DNA from: an uncultured Vicinamibacteraceae bacterium
GTDB taxonomy: Bacteria > Acidobacteriota > Vicinamibacteria > Vicinamibacterales > UBA8438
NCBI GenBank assembly: GCA_964342695.1
Contig: CAYFFV010000004.1
Span: 33,402-97,401, forward strand
Reading direction: 5' to 3'
Length of the DNA: 64,000 bases
Part shown: piece by piece, positions 1 through 29,398 of the stretch
Numbering within the stretch: position 1 is the stretch's first letter
Layout: each line of letters opens with the position of its first letter
Notes under the pieces: generated by a model
What the model saw: only the letters and a program-made list of their open reading frames with translations
The model's database searches: none
What the model was told of the DNA's origin: nothing
Made by a program: the position numbers and the translations under genes

Positions 1-100
1 TACAAGAATCTTTAATTCAACACTTCGTTCTTCAAAAGATGATAAATTCAAAGAAAGAATGAATGAACTAAGTAATAGAGTTTTAAGTACCATATTCTAA
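1..100 (+). CDS. Possible 3' end of an AT-rich ORF entering from the left edge (…TRIFNSTLRSSKDDKFKERMNELSNRVLSTIF*)
   Basis: Frame 2 is open from position 2 to TAA at 98-100; the region is much more AT-rich than the rest of the window; no recognisable motif. Confidence 0.3.
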   Translation, partial: TRIFNSTLRSSKDDKFKERMNELSNRVLSTIF

Positions 101-1345: not shown

Positions 1346-1561
1346 CTATACTGGATTTGTGGCCACTCGATGAGCCTGAGAAAGCCAATGGACTAAGTGT
1401 TGTACGGCTTCATTTGGTGTGCGGCCATAGAAGGGCATTAGGGCAGTAGGCCCGTCGGTCGTGGGCACAAGATATGCTCTCCAACGTTCAGGTGTAATAG
1501 AAAACACCTCAATCTGATAAGTGTAACCGCGGATGGTTTCTTCGAAACGATGTAATTTCAC
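1346..1561 (-). CDS. Small hypothetical protein with HicB-like W-x-A…G-x-T-x-x-E-A motif
   Basis: 71-aa ORF with GTG start; motif spacing shared with 8977..9159. Confidence 0.7.
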   Translation of the reverse strand: MKLHRFEETIRGYTYQIEVFSITPERWRAYLVPTTDGPTALMPFYGRTPNEAVQHLVHWLSQAHRVATNPV

Positions 1562-1668
1562 AAGAAAAGCACTTTTAGAGATTCCTAATTAAAGTTAAAT
1601 GACCGCGGAATTTTATCTCGATAAAAAAAAACGTCAAGCGAAGGCAAAGACGAAGGTTCCATTAACAG

Positions 1669-1769
1669 TGTGTATTTTTGTCAAAAGCGTTGAGCAAATA
1701 GTGTTGAAGAAAAAATAAATTCTTTACGTATCCACAGTCAATTCACATTATTTCCACAATTTTTCCACA
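1669..1769. promoter_or_regulatory. Cluster of DnaA-box-like 9-mers (oriC/DARS/datA-like candidate)
   Basis: GTATCCACA (1728), CAATTCACA (1739), ATTTCCACA (1750), TTTTCCACA (1761) at exact 11-bp period; degenerate reverse copies TGTGTATTT (1669), TGAGCAAAT (1691), TGTTGAAGA (1702); AT-rich spacer between the two arrays. Confidence 0.65.
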
Positions 1770-1837
1770 GACTTCACTTAGAGGTCTCTTGACGATCATC
1801 CGTCCAAGCACTAGTCTGAGATTTAAATGAGGTCTAA

Positions 1838-3223
1838 TTGATGAACGTGCTTCAAAGAGTCTCCATAAACTTAATCGGCCTGCTCTTGTTTTCACCTCTG
1901 ATAGGTTTTCTAAATGCGGAAAACATCACTCTTCCGCTCCACAGAATATTTCTTCAGGGGGGAACGCACTTGGTGATTGTCAGTGACTATGTGCGCATTG
2001 GTGACAAAGTTGTGTTTGCTGTTCCATTCAGCACGGTTCCTAATGACACTAATCCGCAACTTGTGAGTCTGCCGGAAGCATTTGTCGATTGGACCACGAC
2101 GCAACGTTATACAGATGCTGTTCGGGCTTCACTTTTTACGGCAACCCGAGGCGAACAGGAATATCAAGCAATAAACGCTCAGGTCGCTCGAGTTTTAAAT
2201 GAGATTGCGGTTACTAATAATTCAGACTTGCGACTCTCTCTTGCCCGTGATGTCAGAAAGCAATTGTTAGATTGGACGGCGACTAGTTATGGATATAGGT
2301 CTTCGGACGTTCGAGAAATTTTGGCTTTGCTTGAAGAGGCTATTGTTTTGGAATCAGGCTCTAGTTATAAGTTAGATTTGGTGGCAGGGACCAGTCGGAC
2401 AGATATGGTTCCGTTGTTACCTCCGCCAAATATAAAGGACATTCTTGAAAAAGCACTTTTAGTGTCAGAACTGACAGACGTGCCTGCGGAGAAGCTATCT
2501 ATTCTGCGTGCGATTTTATATGAGGTTAACGAGAACAGACACTCTAATAAATTTGATGTGGGATGGAGGGAAAGTTTTCATAAAAAGGTGGAGAAGCGTC
2601 TTTCTCAGGAAATGGATATAGAAAGATTCTATGCATCATTGAAAATAGAATCTCTTCGGCGAGCATCTAATTATGCGAAAAATGCAGATGTACGAAATGT
2701 GCAAATGGTTCTAGATGAGGTAATTCGGACTGATAGAGAATTCGGGGGGCAACGTCCAGTTGAGGTTTTAGCACTATCAAGGAGAATTGAAGAATATCTT
2801 ACTGAGGCGCGTCATATCCGGTTAGAAAATGACAGTTGGAAGTTTAAGGTGACTACTTTTCGAACTTATAACAGTGAATTACAGTATTTGATTGATAATT
2901 TCTTGGATTTACGACCTCTTATAGAAGACATTCGTGTTTTAGCAGGTCCAGAGGTGAGTGTTCTTCCAGAAGTTGGGGATCAGTTGAGTGTGGCAACAGA
3001 TATTCTCTCTAGATATGACCCTGCTGATGAGGTTAAATCAGTTCACGATCTCATTCGAAAGGCATTTACATTGGCGACCAGTGCGGCTCATGGACGGCTT
3101 GAAGCAGTGCGTGACGTCGATTTGGCAACTGCTTGGGATTCTGCGGCTGCGGCGGCAGGTGCGATCATGTTCTTTGACCTTGCGATGAGTGAATTAAATC
3201 AAGTGATTACCGAACCGCTTTAA
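1838..3223 (+). CDS. Hypothetical secreted, largely alpha-helical protein
   Basis: 461-aa ORF with hydrophobic N-terminal signal-like segment; no recognised catalytic motif. Confidence 0.8.
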   Translation: MMNVLQRVSINLIGLLLFSPLIGFLNAENITLPLHRIFLQGGTHLVIVSDYVRIGDKVVFAVPFSTVPNDTNPQLVSLPEAFVDWTTTQRYTDAVRASLFTATRGEQEYQAINAQVARVLNEIAVTNNSDLRLSLARDVRKQLLDWTATSYGYRSSDVREILALLEEAIVLESGSSYKLDLVAGTSRTDMVPLLPPPNIKDILEKALLVSELTDVPAEKLSILRAILYEVNENRHSNKFDVGWRESFHKKVEKRLSQEMDIERFYASLKIESLRRASNYAKNADVRNVQMVLDEVIRTDREFGGQRPVEVLALSRRIEEYLTEARHIRLENDSWKFKVTTFRTYNSELQYLIDNFLDLRPLIEDIRVLAGPEVSVLPEVGDQLSVATDILSRYDPADEVKSVHDLIRKAFTLATSAAHGRLEAVRDVDLATAWDSAAAAAGAIMFFDLAMSELNQVITEPL

Positions 3224-3269: not shown

Positions 3270-6254
3270 GTGCCGGTGGAGCTTTTGTTGAATAAGGATT
3301 TAACTGTAAAAAGTGTTCCAGAAATTACTCCACGGTTGACTCGGCTTTTCCGAGTTTCGAATCTCCAATCCTTCCAGAATACCATTGCTGATTTACTAGT
3401 GTCTCTTAGTCCATCAACAACTAACGACACGGTAGTTCTTGTCCCAACAAGTGCCGCAGGGGTCCAGTTAAGTCGGACAATCCAAGTAACTAAGTTTAAG
3501 AGAGAAACAAAAAAACAAGATTTAAAACTACCAGAATTTTTGAGCCGCAGTGATTGGTATCTGGCAATGTTGAATCGTCTTGTGCCTACGGAAAAACTTT
3601 TATCAGATATTGAACGGAATGTTTGTATGTGGGCAGCTATTCGCACGGCTGGAGAATCAGAGATTCTTCCGCCCTTCAAAGTAAGGCCAGGTCTCTTGCC
3701 TGCCGTCGTAGCTTTCTATGACCAATTGATGCGTTTAGGTCGCTCGATAGACAGTTTTCATCGATTAATGGTCACAGAACTTGAGCCTAACGCTGGTTTT
3801 GATAGAGGTGCGAGTAGTCTTTTGCGGCAGACTCATTTTCTTTCAAGCGCTTTTCGTAATTTCAAAGATCAAATCTCAAAAATCAAGAAGCTGGACGAAC
3901 ACGAATTACGCGCGAAGTTGCTGAAAGGACAAATGGTTCCTCCGTTTGAACGAGTTATTGTTACGATTTCTGATCATGTTGCGGAGCCGGATGGTCTGTG
4001 GCCAACAGACTTCGATCTGCTAACAAGATTACCTGGCATTAAGAACATTGATGTCATTGCAACAGATGAAGTCTTAGACGCAGGTTTTTACGAACGGTTG
4101 TATGATCTGCTTCCTGGAATAGAAAGTCGGAATCTGGTAGATAACCGTCACGCTGTTCCTGTGCTAATCAGTCCTGAGTCAACAGATCAGAATTATTTCG
4201 TATGCCGTGATCGTGAGGAAGAATTATTACTGGTCGCAAGAGCAGTTAAATCAGGCAGTAGTCGGTTGAAATTTGCTCAAAAGAGTGTTCTTTTTCAGGT
4301 TCCTCTTCCATATTTATATTTAGCTCGTCAAGTGTTTGATCAAGCTGAGATTCCTTTTGAGATGAAAGATTCTCTACCGCTTGCTGCCGAATCGTACGCG
4401 GCGAACCTAGATCTTATTTTTGACTTTATTCTCTCTAATTACAGCCGTCCAGCATTGATCGGATTGTTAAGGTCGCCGTATTTTAATTTTTCATTAGATA
4501 GTCACATAATCGACAAAAACATTGTTGAAAAATTTGATCGAGCTTTATACAAAGAGCGTTATAGTGGCGGACACGCTGCGCTCTCTCAAATGGTGGTAAA
4601 GTGGAATTTGAAAGTCGCACACCCTTCTAGCAGTAGTTATAGAGATCCAGAGCTTATATCCGTTCTAGAGATCGTTGAAGCGTTAGCCGCTGATTTTGAG
4701 CGGTTAAGAGTTCAGGAGCATCCTTCAAAGATTATTAAGGGTATCACTGATTTTCTTTCGAAATACGAGGCCGGTAAGGTCGAAGACGTTCTGGCTGATG
4801 AGCGTGAACAAAGGGCGAAAATTCGAATTCGTGAAATATTGGAGGCCTTGTACTGCGCTCACAAAACCCTTGATGATACACCGGTGGATTGTAAAACGTT
4901 GTTTATGTCAGTGCGGAGGTGGATAGAAACGGAAATGTTTCTCTCTCGAGATGTTATTGAGGGTATTCAGCTACTTGATGCACGGGCGGCCAGGTATGGA
5001 AGATTTAATGAGATGTTTTTAGTTGGTTTGGTAAGTGATGAATGGCCTGAACGGATTGCTAGGTCAGTATTCTACCCGAATGCTCTTTTAGTTTCATTAG
5101 GTTGGCCTCGCGCCGCTGAGCGGGTGAGGGCCGCACGAGCGCGTTTTATGGATTTACTACGACTGCCCACGGAAAGAGTTCTAGTCACGACATTTTCTCT
5201 AGAAGACGATTCGATTACTGCCCCGTCGATATTCTTAGAACAACTTGAAAATTCTGATCTAGAAATAGTGCGAGAAGATATCGATCGAGATAAACCCGTT
5301 ACTTTCGAGGAGATACTGGTTAACCCAAAGAATGACTTGGATGATTTTATCGGCGAGCGAGGTAGTTGGCTAGATCTTAGGAGACGACTACCAGATCGGA
5401 ATGATAGTTATCGAGGTGTTGTGGGAAGCAGTAAGGCGCAATCACATTCAGTAAGTGATTTTCAGACTTACATCGATTGTCCGTTTAAATATTTTTCAAG
5501 GCGGGAACTTGCTTTAAAAGAGGAAACTTCCGAGGAACTAGGTGTTACGGCTCGGTTTCAGGGCGATCTATTACACAGTGTTCTAGAAAAGTTTTTTTGT
5601 AAGTGGCAAGCAAAAGGGAATCAGGTCCTTACACAGGCTAATCGAACTGAAGCAGTTTCTGTGTTTTCAACGATTGTGGAGGAAAGTATTAAACAATTAT
5701 CGATTGGCGAACGCGCGGTCATGCGAACTTGGTTTCTTGGTTCTGCGGGTGCATCCGGAATTATTGATCGCTTGTATCTTTCTGAAAGCGACACTGCTTT
5801 CAAGATTATTCAGAGATCCTGTGAACATATCGTTAGTGGAGATTTTGTTTTACAGGGTAAAGCTCAAACTAAGGAAGCGCGACTGAGGGGAAAAATTGAC
5901 AGGCTGGATTTCTTATCCGATGGTAGTTTAAGGATTATTGATTACAAGCTCAATAGAGCTCCAGACAGAAAACATAATGTGCAGCTTCCTCTTTATTCCA
6001 AGTGCATCGAGCAACAATTTAAGCGCGATGAGGGCAAGGAGTGTCGAGTTAAGGAGGCTGCTTATATTGAATTTGGTACGCTGAATTCTTACCGGCCCCT
6101 CAAATCGCAGGATCTTGTAGCAGGAGAGGTGCGAGCGATTGAAATCCTTGATGATATTACTCAAGGAGTTTTTCCTATACAACCTATCAATCGTCGACGG
6201 TGCAACACTTGTTCGTATTCGACCGTGTGTCGTAAAGAGTTTCGAGGAGATTAG
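3270..6254 (+). CDS. addB: AddB/RexB-like subunit with C-terminal PD-(D/E)XK nuclease and 4Fe-4S cluster
   Basis: CPFKYF…GKIDRLD…IIDYK…CNTCSYSTVC nuclease/Fe-S staple; inactive helicase-like body (DREEE); directly upstream of a UvrD-type helicase; exact start uncertain. Confidence 0.85.
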   Translation: MPVELLLNKDLTVKSVPEITPRLTRLFRVSNLQSFQNTIADLLVSLSPSTTNDTVVLVPTSAAGVQLSRTIQVTKFKRETKKQDLKLPEFLSRSDWYLAMLNRLVPTEKLLSDIERNVCMWAAIRTAGESEILPPFKVRPGLLPAVVAFYDQLMRLGRSIDSFHRLMVTELEPNAGFDRGASSLLRQTHFLSSAFRNFKDQISKIKKLDEHELRAKLLKGQMVPPFERVIVTISDHVAEPDGLWPTDFDLLTRLPGIKNIDVIATDEVLDAGFYERLYDLLPGIESRNLVDNRHAVPVLISPESTDQNYFVCRDREEELLLVARAVKSGSSRLKFAQKSVLFQVPLPYLYLARQVFDQAEIPFEMKDSLPLAAESYAANLDLIFDFILSNYSRPALIGLLRSPYFNFSLDSHIIDKNIVEKFDRALYKERYSGGHAALSQMVVKWNLKVAHPSSSSYRDPELISVLEIVEALAADFERLRVQEHPSKIIKGITDFLSKYEAGKVEDVLADEREQRAKIRIREILEALYCAHKTLDDTPVDCKTLFMSVRRWIETEMFLSRDVIEGIQLLDARAARYGRFNEMFLVGLVSDEWPERIARSVFYPNALLVSLGWPRAAERVRAARARFMDLLRLPTERVLVTTFSLEDDSITAPSIFLEQLENSDLEIVREDIDRDKPVTFEEILVNPKNDLDDFIGERGSWLDLRRRLPDRNDSYRGVVGSSKAQSHSVSDFQTYIDCPFKYFSRRELALKEETSEELGVTARFQGDLLHSVLEKFFCKWQAKGNQVLTQANRTEAVSVFSTIVEESIKQLSIGERAVMRTWFLGSAGASGIIDRLYLSESDTAFKIIQRSCEHIVSGDFVLQGKAQTKEARLRGKIDRLDFLSDGSLRIIDYKLNRAPDRKHNVQLPLYSKCIEQQFKRDEGKECRVKEAAYIEFGTLNSYRPLKSQDLVAGEVRAIEILDDITQGVFPIQPINRRRCNTCSYSTVCRKEFRGD

Positions 6255-6262
6255 TAATTATT

Positions 6263-8932
6263 ATGGGCACTGATACGGATGCTCGAAGATTCGCAACGGA
6301 TCCTGCGCATAATGTGGTATTAGAAGCCTCTGCAGGGACAGGAAAGACCTCAGTTTTAGTCGCTCGATATCTGAATTTACTACGTGCCAATGTAGATCCA
6401 GCCAATATCTTAGCCATTACGTTCACACGGAAGGCTGCGGCTGAAATGCGTGCTCGTATCATTGAGGAGTTGCGGCGTGAGTCGCGTCAATCTGATGAAG
6501 GCCGGTCGAGATGGAACGGGCTTCGAGATCATCTCAATGAGGTGTCTATAAGTACCGTTGATGCTTTTTGCTTTTCTTTGCTGAGAGAGTTTCCCTTAGA
6601 GGCAGATCTAGATCCAGGTTTTTCAATCGCTGATGAAACAGAGGTACGGCGCTTACAGGGTGAGGCTATAAATCGAGCTTTGGTTACTGCGGGACAATTA
6701 GCAAATAAAGATGAGACTATAGCTATGCTGCTTGCGTGTCTTGGACCAACCTTCGCTCTTCAAGCTTTTGGTGATTTATTGGACCAAAGACTGATCGTGC
6801 CAAGAGTGCTACACAAATTTCTTGCGGGAACACCGCGCAACTTAAATGGAGCGAAGGCTTGTTGTAAGGCAGTCGATCGATTTAGCGATAGGTTTGAGTC
6901 TCTCAAACCGCAGCTTGAACAAATCGAACTTGAAACGTTAAGTAAAGATCCCGGAGCTTTAAGGGTAATAAGAGCCCTAGATGAAATTCCAGTGACCAAG
7001 AATTGTGACATCTCAGGGATAAGAGCTTGGCTCGATCGGATGCGCGATCTATTTTTGACTAAAGAGAATGGTCAACCAAGAAAGCGGTTTGTTCTCAACA
7101 AGGAAGCACCTAAGGATCTAAGACGTCAGTATAGAGACTTTGCTAGATTAGTAGCGCTAGAAGTAAAAAACGTTCTCGATGCTTTTGATCGCGATATCAA
7201 TGTTGTCATGGTTCAGGGTGTTCAACGAGTGTTTCACATTGTTTTAGAAGAGTATGAAGAAGCTCTTTCATCTCGAGCTTTATTAGATTTCACTGGTCTA
7301 CTAGAGCGGTCCGTTCGGTTGCTCGAGCAAATGGATGAGTTCTCTCGTTCACGATATCGGCTTGAGTCACGCTACCATCACGTATTGGTTGATGAATTTC
7401 AGGATACGAGTCGCATGCAATGGAAGTTGATCTCATTGTTAGTTCAATCTTGGGGTGAAGGCAGTGGGCTGGCGGATGACATTCCGGTGCCACCGACGAT
7501 CTTTGTTGTTGGTGATCGCAAGCAGTCAATTTATAAGTTTCGTAATGCAGATCTTTCCATATTTCGTGATGCTTCAAAGCAGATAGAAAACTTACGCAAT
7601 CAAGATAGGATTCATTCTGTTATTTCCGAGAGTTTTCGTGCGGTTCCAACATTGCTCAATTTCACCAATGATTTTTTCGGCGATATTGATAACGAGTCCA
7701 ATGATGAGGATTCATTTTCTTTTAAGGAGCACGATCGATTTCCATTAAAAACTTCATTGGAAACTGAAAAGTATTCTAATGCTCTTAATCTTGTGATGGC
7801 CGATAGTGTCGAGAATTGTGCAAATTCTGTTGCGGATGAGATCGTGGATCTTCTCAGTACTGGACAGGTTAAAAAGAAGGATGGGGGCTCTCGATCTATT
7901 CAAAAAAATGATATAGCGATTTTGTTTCGTTCGCGGGCTAGTCATCGTGAATTTGAGCGAGCATTGGAGTCACGCTCTGTGCCGACGTATGTTTATAAAG
8001 GTCTTGGATTTTTTGAAGCTAAAGAGATTAAGGATATAAGAGCGCTCATTAGATTTTTAGCGAACCCATCGTCAGAGTTGCGTGCGGCTGCGTTTTTAAG
8101 ATCTCGGTTCGTAAATTTTTCAGATACTGGGTTGTTGGTGCTTTCTCGTCAACTGTCCAAGGCTCTTACAGACCCTGACCCACTACCTGAGTTTCAGAGT
8201 CTATCAACGTCGGACAGGGGCATGTTAACTAAGTCTCGACAAGGCTTGGCGAGATGGCTCGAACTCGTCGATCGAGTTCCTCCAAGTGATGTCTTAGAAC
8301 GAGTGTTTAGAGAAACAGCATTTGCATATGAATTGCGAGGTCTTCACAGTGCTCAAGCGATTGCTAATGTTGGAAGAATGCGAGGCCTTATTCGCCGTAT
8401 CCAAAATCGTGGCTATGCGACGATGGGGCGATTAAGCGATCATATTGATCAGTTGTCATCTGAAATGTCAAATGCCGTTGTTGAGTCGATCGACGCCGTT
8501 AATCTTATGACGGTTCATGCAGCAAAAGGTTTGGAGTTTCCCGTGGTCTTCTTGGTAGATCTGGGTCGAGGTATTACTAGTCAGAGTAGCCGTATTCGGG
8601 TAATAACAGACCAAGGAGACGGTGAGCCATCGGTTGCGGTTGCGCCTTTCCGAGCAGAAGCTGATCACAATGAAAGACGACGAGAATCTGAAGAGACAAA
8701 GCGCTTGCTGTATGTTGCTGTAACGCGGGCATGCGATAGGCTTTATTTTTCAACGGTGATCAAGCGAGAAAAGCCTGTGTTTCTGAATAAAACGAGCTTG
8801 GGGAGCGCATTTCCTGAAAGTTTCAGCAAGATATTTTCGGACGAGAGCATGCGATCGGAGACTCAAGTTGTCGAGTGGAAAGGTCCCAGCGGACAGATGC
8901 ATCGTTTTAGAGTCTGTCATTCTAATTGCTAA
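6263..8932 (+). CDS. addA: AddA-like SF1A (UvrD/RecB family) helicase with no C-terminal nuclease domain
   Basis: ASAGTGKT Walker A, TFTRKAA, LVDEFQD, VGDRKQSIY, MTVHAAKGLEF, RLLYVAVTRA. Confidence 0.88.
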   Translation: MGTDTDARRFATDPAHNVVLEASAGTGKTSVLVARYLNLLRANVDPANILAITFTRKAAAEMRARIIEELRRESRQSDEGRSRWNGLRDHLNEVSISTVDAFCFSLLREFPLEADLDPGFSIADETEVRRLQGEAINRALVTAGQLANKDETIAMLLACLGPTFALQAFGDLLDQRLIVPRVLHKFLAGTPRNLNGAKACCKAVDRFSDRFESLKPQLEQIELETLSKDPGALRVIRALDEIPVTKNCDISGIRAWLDRMRDLFLTKENGQPRKRFVLNKEAPKDLRRQYRDFARLVALEVKNVLDAFDRDINVVMVQGVQRVFHIVLEEYEEALSSRALLDFTGLLERSVRLLEQMDEFSRSRYRLESRYHHVLVDEFQDTSRMQWKLISLLVQSWGEGSGLADDIPVPPTIFVVGDRKQSIYKFRNADLSIFRDASKQIENLRNQDRIHSVISESFRAVPTLLNFTNDFFGDIDNESNDEDSFSFKEHDRFPLKTSLETEKYSNALNLVMADSVENCANSVADEIVDLLSTGQVKKKDGGSRSIQKNDIAILFRSRASHREFERALESRSVPTYVYKGLGFFEAKEIKDIRALIRFLANPSSELRAAAFLRSRFVNFSDTGLLVLSRQLSKALTDPDPLPEFQSLSTSDRGMLTKSRQGLARWLELVDRVPPSDVLERVFRETAFAYELRGLHSAQAIANVGRMRGLIRRIQNRGYATMGRLSDHIDQLSSEMSNAVVESIDAVNLMTVHAAKGLEFPVVFLVDLGRGITSQSSRIRVITDQGDGEPSVAVAPFRAEADHNERRRESEETKRLLYVAVTRACDRLYFSTVIKREKPVFLNKTSLGSAFPESFSKIFSDESMRSETQVVEWKGPSGQMHRFRVCHSNC

Positions 8933-26773: not shown

Positions 26774-27577
26774 ATGGATCAGGTTCAAAACTTTTTACCG
26801 GTGCGTCGTTTTGGAGAAACATCACGGCAAGATAATTGGTGGTTGGAGCCACTAGTGGTCTTTATAGGACTTTCAACATTTGTTGTTTACTCGACTTGGG
26901 CAGCGTTGCAAGGCGAGCACTATTATTCAGGGCCCTATCTGTCACCTTTCTATTCGCCTGAAATTTTTGGTGAATCAAGCCACAGTCTTTTTGGTCCACG
27001 CCCCGGGTGGTGGCCTAGTTGGCTTCCATTTTCACCGGCAATCCTAATTTTATGGGCGCCAGTGGGTTTTAGAATGACCTGCTACTATTACCGAGGTGCC
27101 TACTATAAGGCATTTTGGTCAGACCCAATATCCTGTTCTGTAGGTGAACCCCGTAACATTTATCTCGGCGAGAATTCTTTTCCTCTTCTAATACAGAACA
27201 TGCATCGGTACCTGCTTCCTTTTGCGTTTGCCTTGCTAGTGTTTCTTTCGATTGATGCTTGGAAGGCCTTATGGTTTGAAGATCCACTAACTGGAGTAAC
27301 TTCATTTGGCATTGGTGTTGGCTCAATCATACTGACTCTAAATGTCATTTTACTGAGCAGTTATACCTTGGGTTGTCATTCGCTTCGGCATATCGTCGGT
27401 GGAAGAAAAGATTGTATTTCTGATTCCCCTGCACAGACATCGATGTACAACTGCGTTACTTGTTTTAACAAAAGACATATGTTGTGCGCGTGGTTGAGTC
27501 TCGTGTGTGTTGGTTTTTCTGATATATATGTCCGCATGTGTTCGATGGGTGTGTGGACAGACTTTCGAATTTTGTAG
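26774..27577 (+). CDS. Succinate dehydrogenase membrane anchor, Rv0249c/Sdh1C-like
   Basis: YLSPFYSP, FRMTCYYYRGAYY, YTLGCHSLRH, several TMs; upstream of the flavoprotein gene. Confidence 0.85.
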   Translation: MDQVQNFLPVRRFGETSRQDNWWLEPLVVFIGLSTFVVYSTWAALQGEHYYSGPYLSPFYSPEIFGESSHSLFGPRPGWWPSWLPFSPAILILWAPVGFRMTCYYYRGAYYKAFWSDPISCSVGEPRNIYLGENSFPLLIQNMHRYLLPFAFALLVFLSIDAWKALWFEDPLTGVTSFGIGVGSIILTLNVILLSSYTLGCHSLRHIVGGRKDCISDSPAQTSMYNCVTCFNKRHMLCAWLSLVCVGFSDIYVRMCSMGVWTDFRIL

Positions 27578-27583
27578 GAGCTC

Positions 27584-29398
27584 ATGGAGTATCAGACATT
27601 TGAACATGATGTGTTGGTTATAGGTGCTGGCGGAGCGGGGTTGCGTGCGGCAATTGAGGCATCGGCGGCGGGAGTGTCAGTTGGTTTGGTTTGCAAATCC
27701 TTACTTGGTAAGGCTCATACGGTTATGGCTGAGGGTGGTATGGCCGCTTCACTTGGCAATGTTGATGATCGTGATGGATGGCAGACACATTTTGCGGACA
27801 CTATGCGAGGAGGTCAGTATTTAAATAATTGGCGAATGGCAGAACTCCATGCCAAAGAGGCCCCTGATCGAGTTCGTGAACTTGAATCATGGGGTGCCGT
27901 TTTTGATCGCACAAAAGATGGCCGCATTCTTCAACGTAATTTTGGTGGTCATAAATATCCTCGCTTGGCGCATGTCGGTGATCGCACTGGTCTTGAGATG
28001 ATTCGGACCCTTCAAGATTATGGAGTTCACCAAGGAATAGATGTGCATATGGAGTGCACTGTCATTGAACTCTTAAAGGATGGAGACCGGGTTGTTGGGG
28101 CTTTTGGTTACGATCGAGAACGTGGCCGCTTTCGTGTGTTCAAGGCTAAAGCTGTCGTGCTCGCTTCTGGAGGGATAGGAAGAGCTTTTAAGGTCACTAG
28201 TAACAGTTGGGAATATACAGGTGATGGCCATGCCTTGGCATATCGGGCAGGCGCCGAATTAATCGATATGGAATTTGTTCAATTTCATCCTACAGGTATG
28301 GTGTGGCCTCCCTCCGTAAAAGGGATTTTAGTTACTGAGGGAGTCCGAGGTGAGGGTGGTGTGTTGCGTAACAGTGAAGGTCGTCGATTTATGTTTGATG
28401 ACATTCCAGATCTCTACAAACATCAGACTGCCGATAATCCCGAAGAAGGATGGATTTATACCCAAGGTGACAAGAATGCCAGAAGACCTCCAGAGTTGTT
28501 GACGCGGGATCACGTGGCGCGTTGTATCGTCCGTGAGATTAAGGAAGGTCGGGGAAGTCCTCATGGTGGAGTTTTTCTTGATATTTCTTGGATCAAGGAA
28601 AAACTTCCAAATGCTTCTGAGCATATTAAGAAGAAATTACCGAGTATGTATCATCAATTTAAACAACTTGCCGGAATTGATATTACTGCTGAGCCGATGG
28701 AAGTTGGACCGACGACTCACTACGTCATGGGTGGTGTTCGTGTCGATGCAGATACGCAGATGTCAGCCGTTCCAGGTCTTTTCGCTGCGGGGGAGGTTGC
28801 CGGTGGTCTCCATGGGGCTAATCGTCTCGGTGGTAATTCGTTGTCGGACTTGGTAGTTTTTGGCAAGCGAGCTGGTCAGTACGCGGCAGAATTTTCTAAA
28901 GACCATGGAGCAGGTTCGGTTGATAATGATCAGATTGAGATGGTCTCGCGGATAGCGTTGGCCCCCCTTGAGCGGCAAGGCACGGGGGAGCCTCCTTACC
29001 AGCTCCAGTACGAACTCCAAGATATGATGCAGAGTCAGGTTGGTATCGTGCGGAACGATGAAGAGTTGCATCAGGCGATTGATAAACTCCAGCAACTCGG
29101 CGAACGTGTCAAGAATGTTGAGGCGCAAGGCAATAGGGAGTACAACGCCGGATGGCACACGGCACTTGATTTAAGAAACTTAATGCCTGTTGCTGAGGCA
29201 GTTGCTCGTGCTGCTGCCGAGAGGAAAGAAAGTCGTGGTGCTCACTTCCGCGAAGATTTTCTTTCAAAGGATGAGGAGTGGGGAAAGACAAGCCTTGTCG
29301 CTAAGCAATCTGCTGATGGCACGATGGAAATTCGTCGGGAAGAGATTTCTGGGCCTCGAGATGATTTGCAACAGATTATTGAAGAAAATCAAAAATAG
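27584..29398 (+). CDS. sdhA: Succinate dehydrogenase/fumarate reductase flavoprotein subunit (Sdh1 type)
   Basis: GAGGAGLRAA, GKAHTVMAEGG, QFHPTG, TEGVRGEGG, HGANRLGGNSL, ESRGAH. Confidence 0.95.
   Translation: MEYQTFEHDVLVIGAGGAGLRAAIEASAAGVSVGLVCKSLLGKAHTVMAEGGMAASLGNVDDRDGWQTHFADTMRGGQYLNNWRMAELHAKEAPDRVRELESWGAVFDRTKDGRILQRNFGGHKYPRLAHVGDRTGLEMIRTLQDYGVHQGIDVHMECTVIELLKDGDRVVGAFGYDRERGRFRVFKAKAVVLASGGIGRAFKVTSNSWEYTGDGHALAYRAGAELIDMEFVQFHPTGMVWPPSVKGILVTEGVRGEGGVLRNSEGRRFMFDDIPDLYKHQTADNPEEGWIYTQGDKNARRPPELLTRDHVARCIVREIKEGRGSPHGGVFLDISWIKEKLPNASEHIKKKLPSMYHQFKQLAGIDITAEPMEVGPTTHYVMGGVRVDADTQMSAVPGLFAAGEVAGGLHGANRLGGNSLSDLVVFGKRAGQYAAEFSKDHGAGSVDNDQIEMVSRIALAPLERQGTGEPPYQLQYELQDMMQSQVGIVRNDEELHQAIDKLQQLGERVKNVEAQGNREYNAGWHTALDLRNLMPVAEAVARAAAERKESRGAHFREDFLSKDEEWGKTSLVAKQSADGTMEIRREEISGPRDDLQQIIEENQK

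Follow-up and report, generated by a model that had tools for sequence, protein, structure and literature searches.

A conserved, helically phased array of four predicted DnaA boxes between a small divergent gene and an AddAB-like operon in Vicinamibacterales

Binding sites for the replication initiator DnaA occur both at origins and elsewhere in bacterial genomes. In the oriC of E. coli, low-affinity DnaA sites are spaced 2 bp apart and filled cooperatively from a strong anchor box, and the unwinding region lies on the CACA side of the boxes. The function of the non-origin elements datA and DARS requires a site for IHF or another bending protein, and the core of DARS consists of oppositely oriented boxes. 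DnaA boxes have furthermore been described at DnaA-regulated promoters of E. coli, where they form tandem 'double DnaA boxes' (Stringer, Fitzgerald and Wade 2024, PMC11317965); that study reports that E. coli DnaA prefers a gap of 2–3 bp between tandem boxes in vivo, and the gap is 2 bp in the array that we present here. The protein can be an activator or a repressor and co-regulates the repair genes uvrB, recN and polA in E. coli (PMC8203912). Non-origin DnaA-box sites at promoters are already known; the predicted site analysed here is unusually regular, is deeply conserved and has a new target. Outside subscription journals, the titles and opening lines of abstracts in the literature on DnaA boxes with addAB or in Acidobacteria describe no such element.

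The array was found in a stretch of 64,000 nucleotides (hereafter the window, C4:33402-97401) from a metagenome-assembled genome of a marine member of the Vicinamibacterales (Acidobacteriota) whose whole assembly was scanned (2,070,820 bases in 43 contigs, ~2.07 Mb). This genome of ~2.1 Mb has a GC content of 45% and a strong GC skew, and its relatives have 2.4–6.8 Mb and mostly 60–77% GC. The source genome resembles a streamlined marine lineage, and marine or seawater metagenomes are the public sequencing runs in which the stretch occurs. Leaving aside the likely source, three DNA runs yield contigs that cover the array with zero differences. Contigs from an RNA library (a single RNA run) overlap only positions 1200–1297 and 2245–2447 and cannot reveal a transcript start nor, strictly, transcription.

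The array is located in an intergenic spacer of 279 bp between a leftward ORF of 71 aa (orf71, 1346–1561, minus strand) and a rightward ORF with its ATG at 1841. It consists of four 9-mers on the plus strand, namely box 1 (GTATCCACA, 1728–1736), box 2 (CAATTCACA, 1739–1747), box 3 (ATTTCCACA, 1750–1758) and box 4 (TTTTCCACA, 1761–1769). As the sequence-only reading had reported, all four are in direct orientation with an exact start-to-start distance of 11 bp, i.e. with 2-bp gaps throughout and 44 bp in total. It had also counted one perfect match to TTWTNCACA and two 9-mers with one mismatch, and this count is confirmed: box 4 has no mismatch and is identical to the 9-mer of the dnaA-promoter box, boxes 1 and 3 have one mismatch each, and box 2 has two and is the weakest slot in the relatives too.

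When comparing the locus to the known systems, we find partial likeness to each of them. With the low-affinity arrays of E. coli oriC it shares the 11-bp head-to-tail register and a weak box (box 2) flanked by strong ones (boxes 3 and 4, partly box 1), whereas it is not at an origin and has neither an opposed partner array nor a skew switch. Like datA and DARS of E. coli, it is a non-origin cluster of DnaA-box matches with an adjacent A/T-rich element, but it contains direct repeats only, is phased with a promoter-like site, has a variable distance to dnaA and has no identified IHF site. The E. coli double boxes (PMC11317965) are likewise direct TTWTNCACA-type 9-mers with a 2-bp gap in promoter regions, and they too are part of a compact regulon, to which the dnaA promoter and genes for repair or nucleotide metabolism belong. 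They differ from our locus in having two boxes instead of four predicted boxes in one register with two divergent promoter-like sites, and our locus has as its predicted target an AddAB-like operon and a 71-aa protein that is restricted to Acidobacteriota in the clusters seen. Similar to sda of B. subtilis, a cluster of DnaA-box matches is found upstream of a small-protein gene outside oriC and would, as at sda (PMC8203912), link replication status to another process. Unlike sda, however, the 71-aa protein has no detectable relation to Sda, the 44-bp cluster is strictly phased and the partner is a helicase-nuclease operon.

The array stands out by its phasing. In the window, the pattern TYCACA-N5-TYCACA occurs three times, always within the array, compared to an expected number of 0.09, and at least three matches were found in 0 of 100 shuffles. 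The window has no excess of single TTWTNCACA boxes (5 observed vs 6.98 expected). Across the genome of 2.07 Mb, both of the two matches to CACA-N7-CACA-N7-CACA are inside the array. Furthermore, 19 places in the genome contain at least three of four in-phase 9-mers with at most two mismatches to TTWTNCACA, and the array is the sole place with four of four and the densest in-phase DnaA-box cluster of the genome.

A second, inverted set of boxes that had been proposed to the left of the array on the same phase (1669–1710, minus strand) does not hold up. The reverse complements AAATACACA, GCTTTTGAC, ATTTGCTCA and TCTTCAACA have 2, 6, 2 and 2 mismatches, respectively, and the set is one of the 19 three-of-four matches in the genome. 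It is also off phase, as the distance from 1702 to 1728 is 26, i.e. 4 bp off the 11-bp register. Across 95 related loci, window included, a minus-strand box with at most two mismatches is present at the offsets -59, -48, -37 and -26 in 1%, 0%, 1% and 9% of the loci, where the 9% at -26 is due to a conserved A/T tract. We judge the left set to be chance matches in AT-rich DNA.

To follow the array through the order, we used a first set of 14 relatives that was found through the 460-aa protein encoded by the rightward ORF, and loci found by alignment of the 71-aa protein, of which the best 80 of 357 confirmed loci were used. The record titles of these best 80 loci name Vicinamibacterales, Vicinamibacteria or Acidobacteriota, with two exceptions labelled as other taxa, which we take to be binning or labelling errors. 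One of the loci comes from a Luteitalea metagenome-assembled genome. The resulting 95 related loci come from genomes with 43–77% GC and comprise 92 unique loci after removal of three duplicates; these loci are kin and not independent samples.

Between the orthologous flanking genes, each of the 92 unique loci has the four-slot array in unchanged orientation and place, which is the conservation that the sequence-only reading had proposed to look for. The consensus is nnnTCCACAgg a.aT.CAC... tc.TCcACAG. TTTTCCACAg. Compared to four in-phase copies of TTTTCCACA, the arrays of the 92 unique loci score 22–30 of 36, whereas the highest scores are 17 and 21 for the two strands of equally long coding windows from these loci and 20 for the opposite strand of the spacer. 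The box register was picked by maximising the match score and the percentages per box thus lean towards the motif: among the 95 loci, slots with at most two mismatches are found for box 1 in 56%, box 2 in 49%, box 3 in 84% and box 4 in 99%. The final four nucleotides of slot 1 are CACA in 66 of the 92 unique loci, slot 2 ends in CACA, CACC or CACG in 85 of 92 and is commonly AAATTCACC, and slot 4 is exactly TTTTCCACA in 49 of 92. For the closest family, boxes 3 and 4 are frequently TTTTCAACA and TTTTGCACA. The information content peaks on the boxes and is close to zero between the conserved blocks.

The genes around the spacer are conserved to different degrees. In the 14 relatives, the gene order is asparaginase, orf71, spacer, 460-aa gene and addB; tblastn detected orf71, the 460-aa gene and addB in 14/14 and the asparaginase in 12/14. 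Of the best 80 of 357 orf71 loci, 76 have addB within 2.5 kb of flanking sequence and 48 have the 460-aa gene (1841–3223 in the window, plus strand). In loci that lack the 460-aa gene and where addB was found, addB comes after the spacer, directly in most of them. Since the 460-aa gene is optional in the order and addB is found at 76 of 80 loci, the constant partners of the array are orf71 and addB. We here use 'AddAB-like' as the safe name for the protein pair encoded downstream. The first protein is AddB-like (994 aa, 3270–6254, plus strand) with a C-terminal PD-(D/E)XK nuclease domain; its AddB/RexB matches are weak and below the NCBIfam equivalog cut-offs. The second is a UvrD-family helicase (889 aa, 6263–8932, plus strand) that is closest to AddA models, also below the cut-offs, and in which the Pfam PD-(D/E)XK models detected no nuclease domain. 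The pair may thus carry a single nuclease, in the AddB-like subunit.

For the 71-aa and 460-aa proteins, neither Pfam nor NCBIfam contains a matching family. The 71-aa protein is conserved with the motif ALMPFYG-TP and has no assigned function. Its AlphaFold model (pLDDT 84) has three to four strands and a helix and yielded no match in the PDB (best Foldseek E-value 0.44), and in the ESM Atlas only Acidobacteriota clusters resemble it. In the records and clusters seen, the protein is confined to Acidobacteriota, MPFYG is invariant and the gene is always divergent from addB.

The window contains no dnaA, as had been stated before; the profile PF00308 places dnaA on the contigs C9 and C32. Directly upstream of both copies we found ATTTCCACA and TTTTCCACA as well as inverted TTTTCCACA-type partners. 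Of the 31 dnaA loci examined in the order, 30 have one or more perfect boxes upstream of dnaA and the exception is cut by a contig end; in 21 of the 31 a perfect plus-strand box is followed by a perfect minus-strand box 11 nt later. The presence of the same 9-mer upstream of dnaA in 30 of 31 loci marks TTTTCCACA as the DnaA box of the order. Tandem boxes point to the same protein. Genome-wide, TYCACA-N4-6-TYCACA has six matches at four loci, i.e. the array (three matches), the regions upstream of the two dnaA copies and an intergenic region beside serA (C37:338). As ~2.8 tandem pairs are expected from the hexamer frequency, six pairs are only about twice the expected number, and the argument thus rests on the location of the pairs and not on their number. 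In five complete relatives, TCCACA-N5-6-TCCACA occurs 3–5 times per genome compared to 0–2 times for a reversed-pattern control. Three recurrent loci account for 14 of the 20 tandem matches, namely the dnaA promoter (5/5 genomes), the array (4/5; the array of the fifth genome has variant boxes) and the spacer between serA and an Iso_dh-family gene (5/5). We infer from these patterns that the repeats of the array are DnaA boxes.

The serA-side region is a third conserved tandem-box site. At C37:338-354 it reads TTTTCCACA-AGG-TTTTCCACA, followed by an inverted TCTTCAACA, and it is located beside serA (D-3-phosphoglycerate dehydrogenase) and opposite an Iso_dh-family gene in the relatives (Pfam, one checked). 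The site is nearly identical in the five complete relatives and the source genome. As for dnaA itself, the metagenome-assembled genome contains two regions (C9:20473-28360 and C32:1-9842) that share the order yidC ... dnaA-dnaN-gyrB-gyrA. The two DnaA proteins are 74% identical, contig C32 has 11.6 kb and 48% GC, and 40 of 40 relatives searched have one dnaA. Rather than a true duplication, the two copies probably reflect the presence of a second, related strain in the bin. A second dnaA as a paralogue dedicated to the array was also considered and judged less likely than the second strain.

Promoter-like sites are found on both sides of the array. On the minus strand, the site of the 71-aa gene is TTGACG-16-TAAAAT (1610–1637), with 10/12 consensus matches and a -10 element that is TAGAAT in most relatives. 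The strict leftward pattern TTGACN-16-TANNNT is present in 34 of the 95 loci, at 86–90 nt from box 1 in 28 of them and at 77 nt in the other six, in which the box register is shifted by one slot. The leftward -35 element and its upstream repeats form a near-universal block, CGTCAAGCGAAGG ... ACGAAGG, i.e. CAAGCGAAG-N7/8-CGAAG (1632–1656). An inverted copy of this -35 region is located at 1785–1794, such that the two -35 regions are mutually inverted copies. Both divergent -35 elements have the extended form CTTGACG. A second leftward match, TTGACT-18-TATTTT (1741–1712), was discarded as its -35 element is not conserved in the relatives. Rfam detected no RNA families in 1200–2100 (E up to 1).

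The rightward site of the operon, TTGACG-17-TAGTCT (1789–1817, plus strand), begins 19 nt after box 4 and was read directly from the sequence, with TTGACG at 1789–1794, a 17-nt spacer and TAGTCT at 1812–1817; it is missing from the promoter scan because its -10 element matches the consensus at only 3/6 positions. In the related loci, TTGACN-16..18-TANNNT occurs beyond the array in 58 of 95, mostly as TTGACG-17-TACGCT; in most of these 58 the -10 element is TACGCT, which is unusually fixed and contains GC. Between 1 and 78 nt separate box 4 from the rightward -35 element, with clusters at 1–2, ~21, ~32, 45, 55 and 78 nt, and box 4 abuts the -35 element in 15 relatives. Of 56 unique loci, 44 have a gap of 10, 0, 1 or 2 modulo 11, with a mean resultant length R of 0.55 at period 11 compared to 0.18 at period 12. 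When each distinct distance is counted once, p is ~0.004, although p-values for this phasing are overstated as the related loci are kin. A phasing of ~11 bp fits a factor that is required to face the polymerase from one side of the helix. We infer promoters at the two sites from these consensus matches.

Two further blocks accompany the array. The AT-rich spacer that had been noted to the left of box 1 is real and is conserved as an A/T tract (1707–1726) with the consensus aAaaaa.tTT at -21..-12, i.e. 12–21 nt left of box 1. The tract is kept even in genomes of 64–77% GC and may be a bend or a site for an accessory protein. A candidate fifth box, 'box 0' (CCATTAACA, 1659–1667, plus strand), has the same orientation as the array and is located just right of the near-universal block, ~60 nt upstream of where the leftward transcript would start. 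It is degenerate in the window, reads TCCACA or TCAACA in the relatives when aligned rows are compared by eye, and its best match has at most two mismatches in 23 of the 95 loci.

What could such an array do? The sequence-only reading had offered a replication origin uncoupled from dnaA among its options, and phased boxes next to an A/T tract do superficially resemble a region of DnaA oligomerisation with an unwinding element; a DnaA-box cluster as found at oriC is present. However, there is no skew switch at the array. On contig C4, GC skew is positive in 34 of 38 3-kb bins. To the left of the array this applies to 10 of 11 bins, and the skew stays positive to the right; the cumulative skew, for which a minimum near the array had been suggested as support, has its minimum at the start of the contig and not at 35 kb. 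The plus strand to the right of the array is G/T-rich as had been noted by eye, and on the contig the left side is equally G-rich. In contrast, the skew of contig C9 turns from minus to plus at ~24–27 kb, where dnaA (26,984–28,321, minus strand) faces rpmH-rnpA-yidC. Similarly, in the complete relative G015 the skew is +0.028 and +0.018 in the 100 kb to the left and right of the array, with no switch across these 200 kb, and is -0.007 and +0.008 around dnaA. The array is next to the asparaginase gene, orf71 and addBA, and the usual neighbours of oriC (dnaA, dnaN, rpmH, gidA) are not beside it. Furthermore, an unwinding module comprises one or more boxes, a spacer and trios (PMC8287927). The A/T tract here is on the TT side of the boxes, and on the CACA side box 4 is followed by GC-rich DNA or a -35 element, which in many relatives begins 1–2 nt after it. 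Beyond box 4, no run of NAN trios was found. The origin claim is thus refuted for the option that had been proposed, and we consider any origin at the array, second or dnaA-uncoupled, extremely improbable. As the conserved array is located between back-to-back promoter-like sites across the whole order, it points to a DnaA-controlled gene switch and not to an origin. The densest phased DnaA-box cluster of a metagenome-assembled genome need not be its origin, and box density alone would thus mislead origin prediction here.

Two other roles concern what the repeats bind and what the bound protein does. The array might be an element of the DnaA cycle similar to datA or DARS that titrates DnaA or alters its nucleotide state, with the A/T tract as the site of a bending protein and a place in this spacer only by synteny. 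E. coli offers precedents, the array is the densest in-phase cluster of the genome, and the tract keeps a fixed offset from box 1 in GC-rich genomes with no assignable promoter role. The conserved A/T tract is present, and a comparison by eye with the IHF consensus gave no match. Such a role appears unlikely to us: the array is helically phased with the rightward -35 element and keeps a fixed distance to the leftward promoter, both of which speak for a tie to transcription, four boxes hold few DnaA molecules, all of them are direct repeats unlike the core of DARS, and the distance between array and dnaA is not conserved (0.4–2.5 Mb in six relatives: G013, G031, G006, G034, G015 and G002). The idea of a constant array position relative to dnaA was dropped on the same distances (2.55 Mb in G002 vs ~0.4 Mb in G013). 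Alternatively, the likeness to DnaA boxes could be coincidental and the true binder could be another regulator specific for tandem repeats spaced at 11 bp, for instance a winged-helix response regulator of the OmpR/PhoB type. The sites of this family are classically arranged as head-to-tail hexamers that repeat every 11 bp upstream of the -35 element, and direct repeats of ~11 bp upstream of or overlapping the -35 element are what we see, a layout that by itself fits DnaA equally; slots 1–3 moreover conserve mainly a (T)C(C/A)AC(A) core and not the full 9-mer. Yet slot 4 is a perfect DnaA 9-mer in more than half of the unique loci (49/92), this 9-mer marks the dnaA promoters of the order, tandem pairs recur at dnaA in five complete genomes, and no response-regulator gene is present among the seven neighbouring proteins scanned. 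We therefore regard a regulator of this type as quite unlikely.

The best explanation of the locus is in our view that the array is bound by DnaA and controls the divergent promoters, which we consider probable. Its boxes follow the organism's own consensus as seen at the dnaA promoters, they are tandem with 2-bp gaps, and conserved, phased consensus matches to promoters flank them on both sides. Because the array is beside sigma-70-like promoters and conserved with them, control by DnaA is the best supported of the options that had been proposed for the downstream block, with the correction that the constant partners are the 71-aa gene and addB and not the 460-aa gene.

In this DnaA-bound arrangement, the array would be the landing pad for a head-to-tail DnaA oligomer and would correspond to two tandem 'double boxes' in a control region common to two divergent sigma-70-type promoters, of which the leftward one would drive the 71-aa gene and the rightward one the AddB/AddA-like helicase-nuclease operon. 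DnaA, probably in its ATP form, would fill the strong slots 4, 3 and 1 and bridge the weak slot 2, giving four protomers. Expression of the flanking genes would thereby depend on how much DnaA is present or on its nucleotide state, and would in this way be tied to replication status. If the rightward transcript starts 7 nt after the -10 element, as we assumed, the slot centres would be at about -59, -70, -81 and -92 on one face of the helix. This position upstream of the -35 element and on one helix face suggests activation, and our working model is that high DnaA-ATP would activate the repair operon. Within the DnaA-bound reading, we give activation of the operon about an even chance, and the sign of regulation is guessed from where the array lies; alternatively, an oligomer that spreads over the -35 element would repress. 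Box 0 and the A/T tract lie within the fixed distance of 88 nt between the array and the leftward promoter, which suggests that one nucleoprotein complex could serve both promoters. Biologically, such an arrangement would make sense as a coupling of a fork-rescue or break-processing enzyme to replication status.

A more far-reaching possibility is that array, 71-aa protein and AddAB-like enzyme together make up a single module for replication stress that is governed by DnaA and specific to Vicinamibacteria. Replication stalling would let DnaA-ATP build up, and a four-protomer filament would then induce the enzyme together with a small protein that gives feedback to either DnaA or the enzyme, in the manner of an Sda-like checkpoint or as a modulator of AddAB; the A/T tract could add a datA/DARS-like catalysis. 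We offer this module as speculation that has a small chance of being correct in full.

Lastly, the locus has consequences for the biology of this order. It provides a DnaA-box consensus (TTTTCCACA) for a barely studied and mostly uncultured order of Acidobacteria. The natural steps of ~11 bp in the distance between array and promoter are a ready-made face-of-helix test for DnaA as a transcription factor. In the titles and abstract openings of the literature on DnaA boxes with addAB or in Acidobacteria, we found no direct link between the replication initiator and an enzyme that processes broken forks, and such a link is what we propose here. Together with the other tandem-box sites, the array gives a first sketch of a compact DnaA regulon in Vicinamibacterales, which would comprise dnaA, the AddAB-like operon with its small partner gene, and the serA/Iso_dh spacer.
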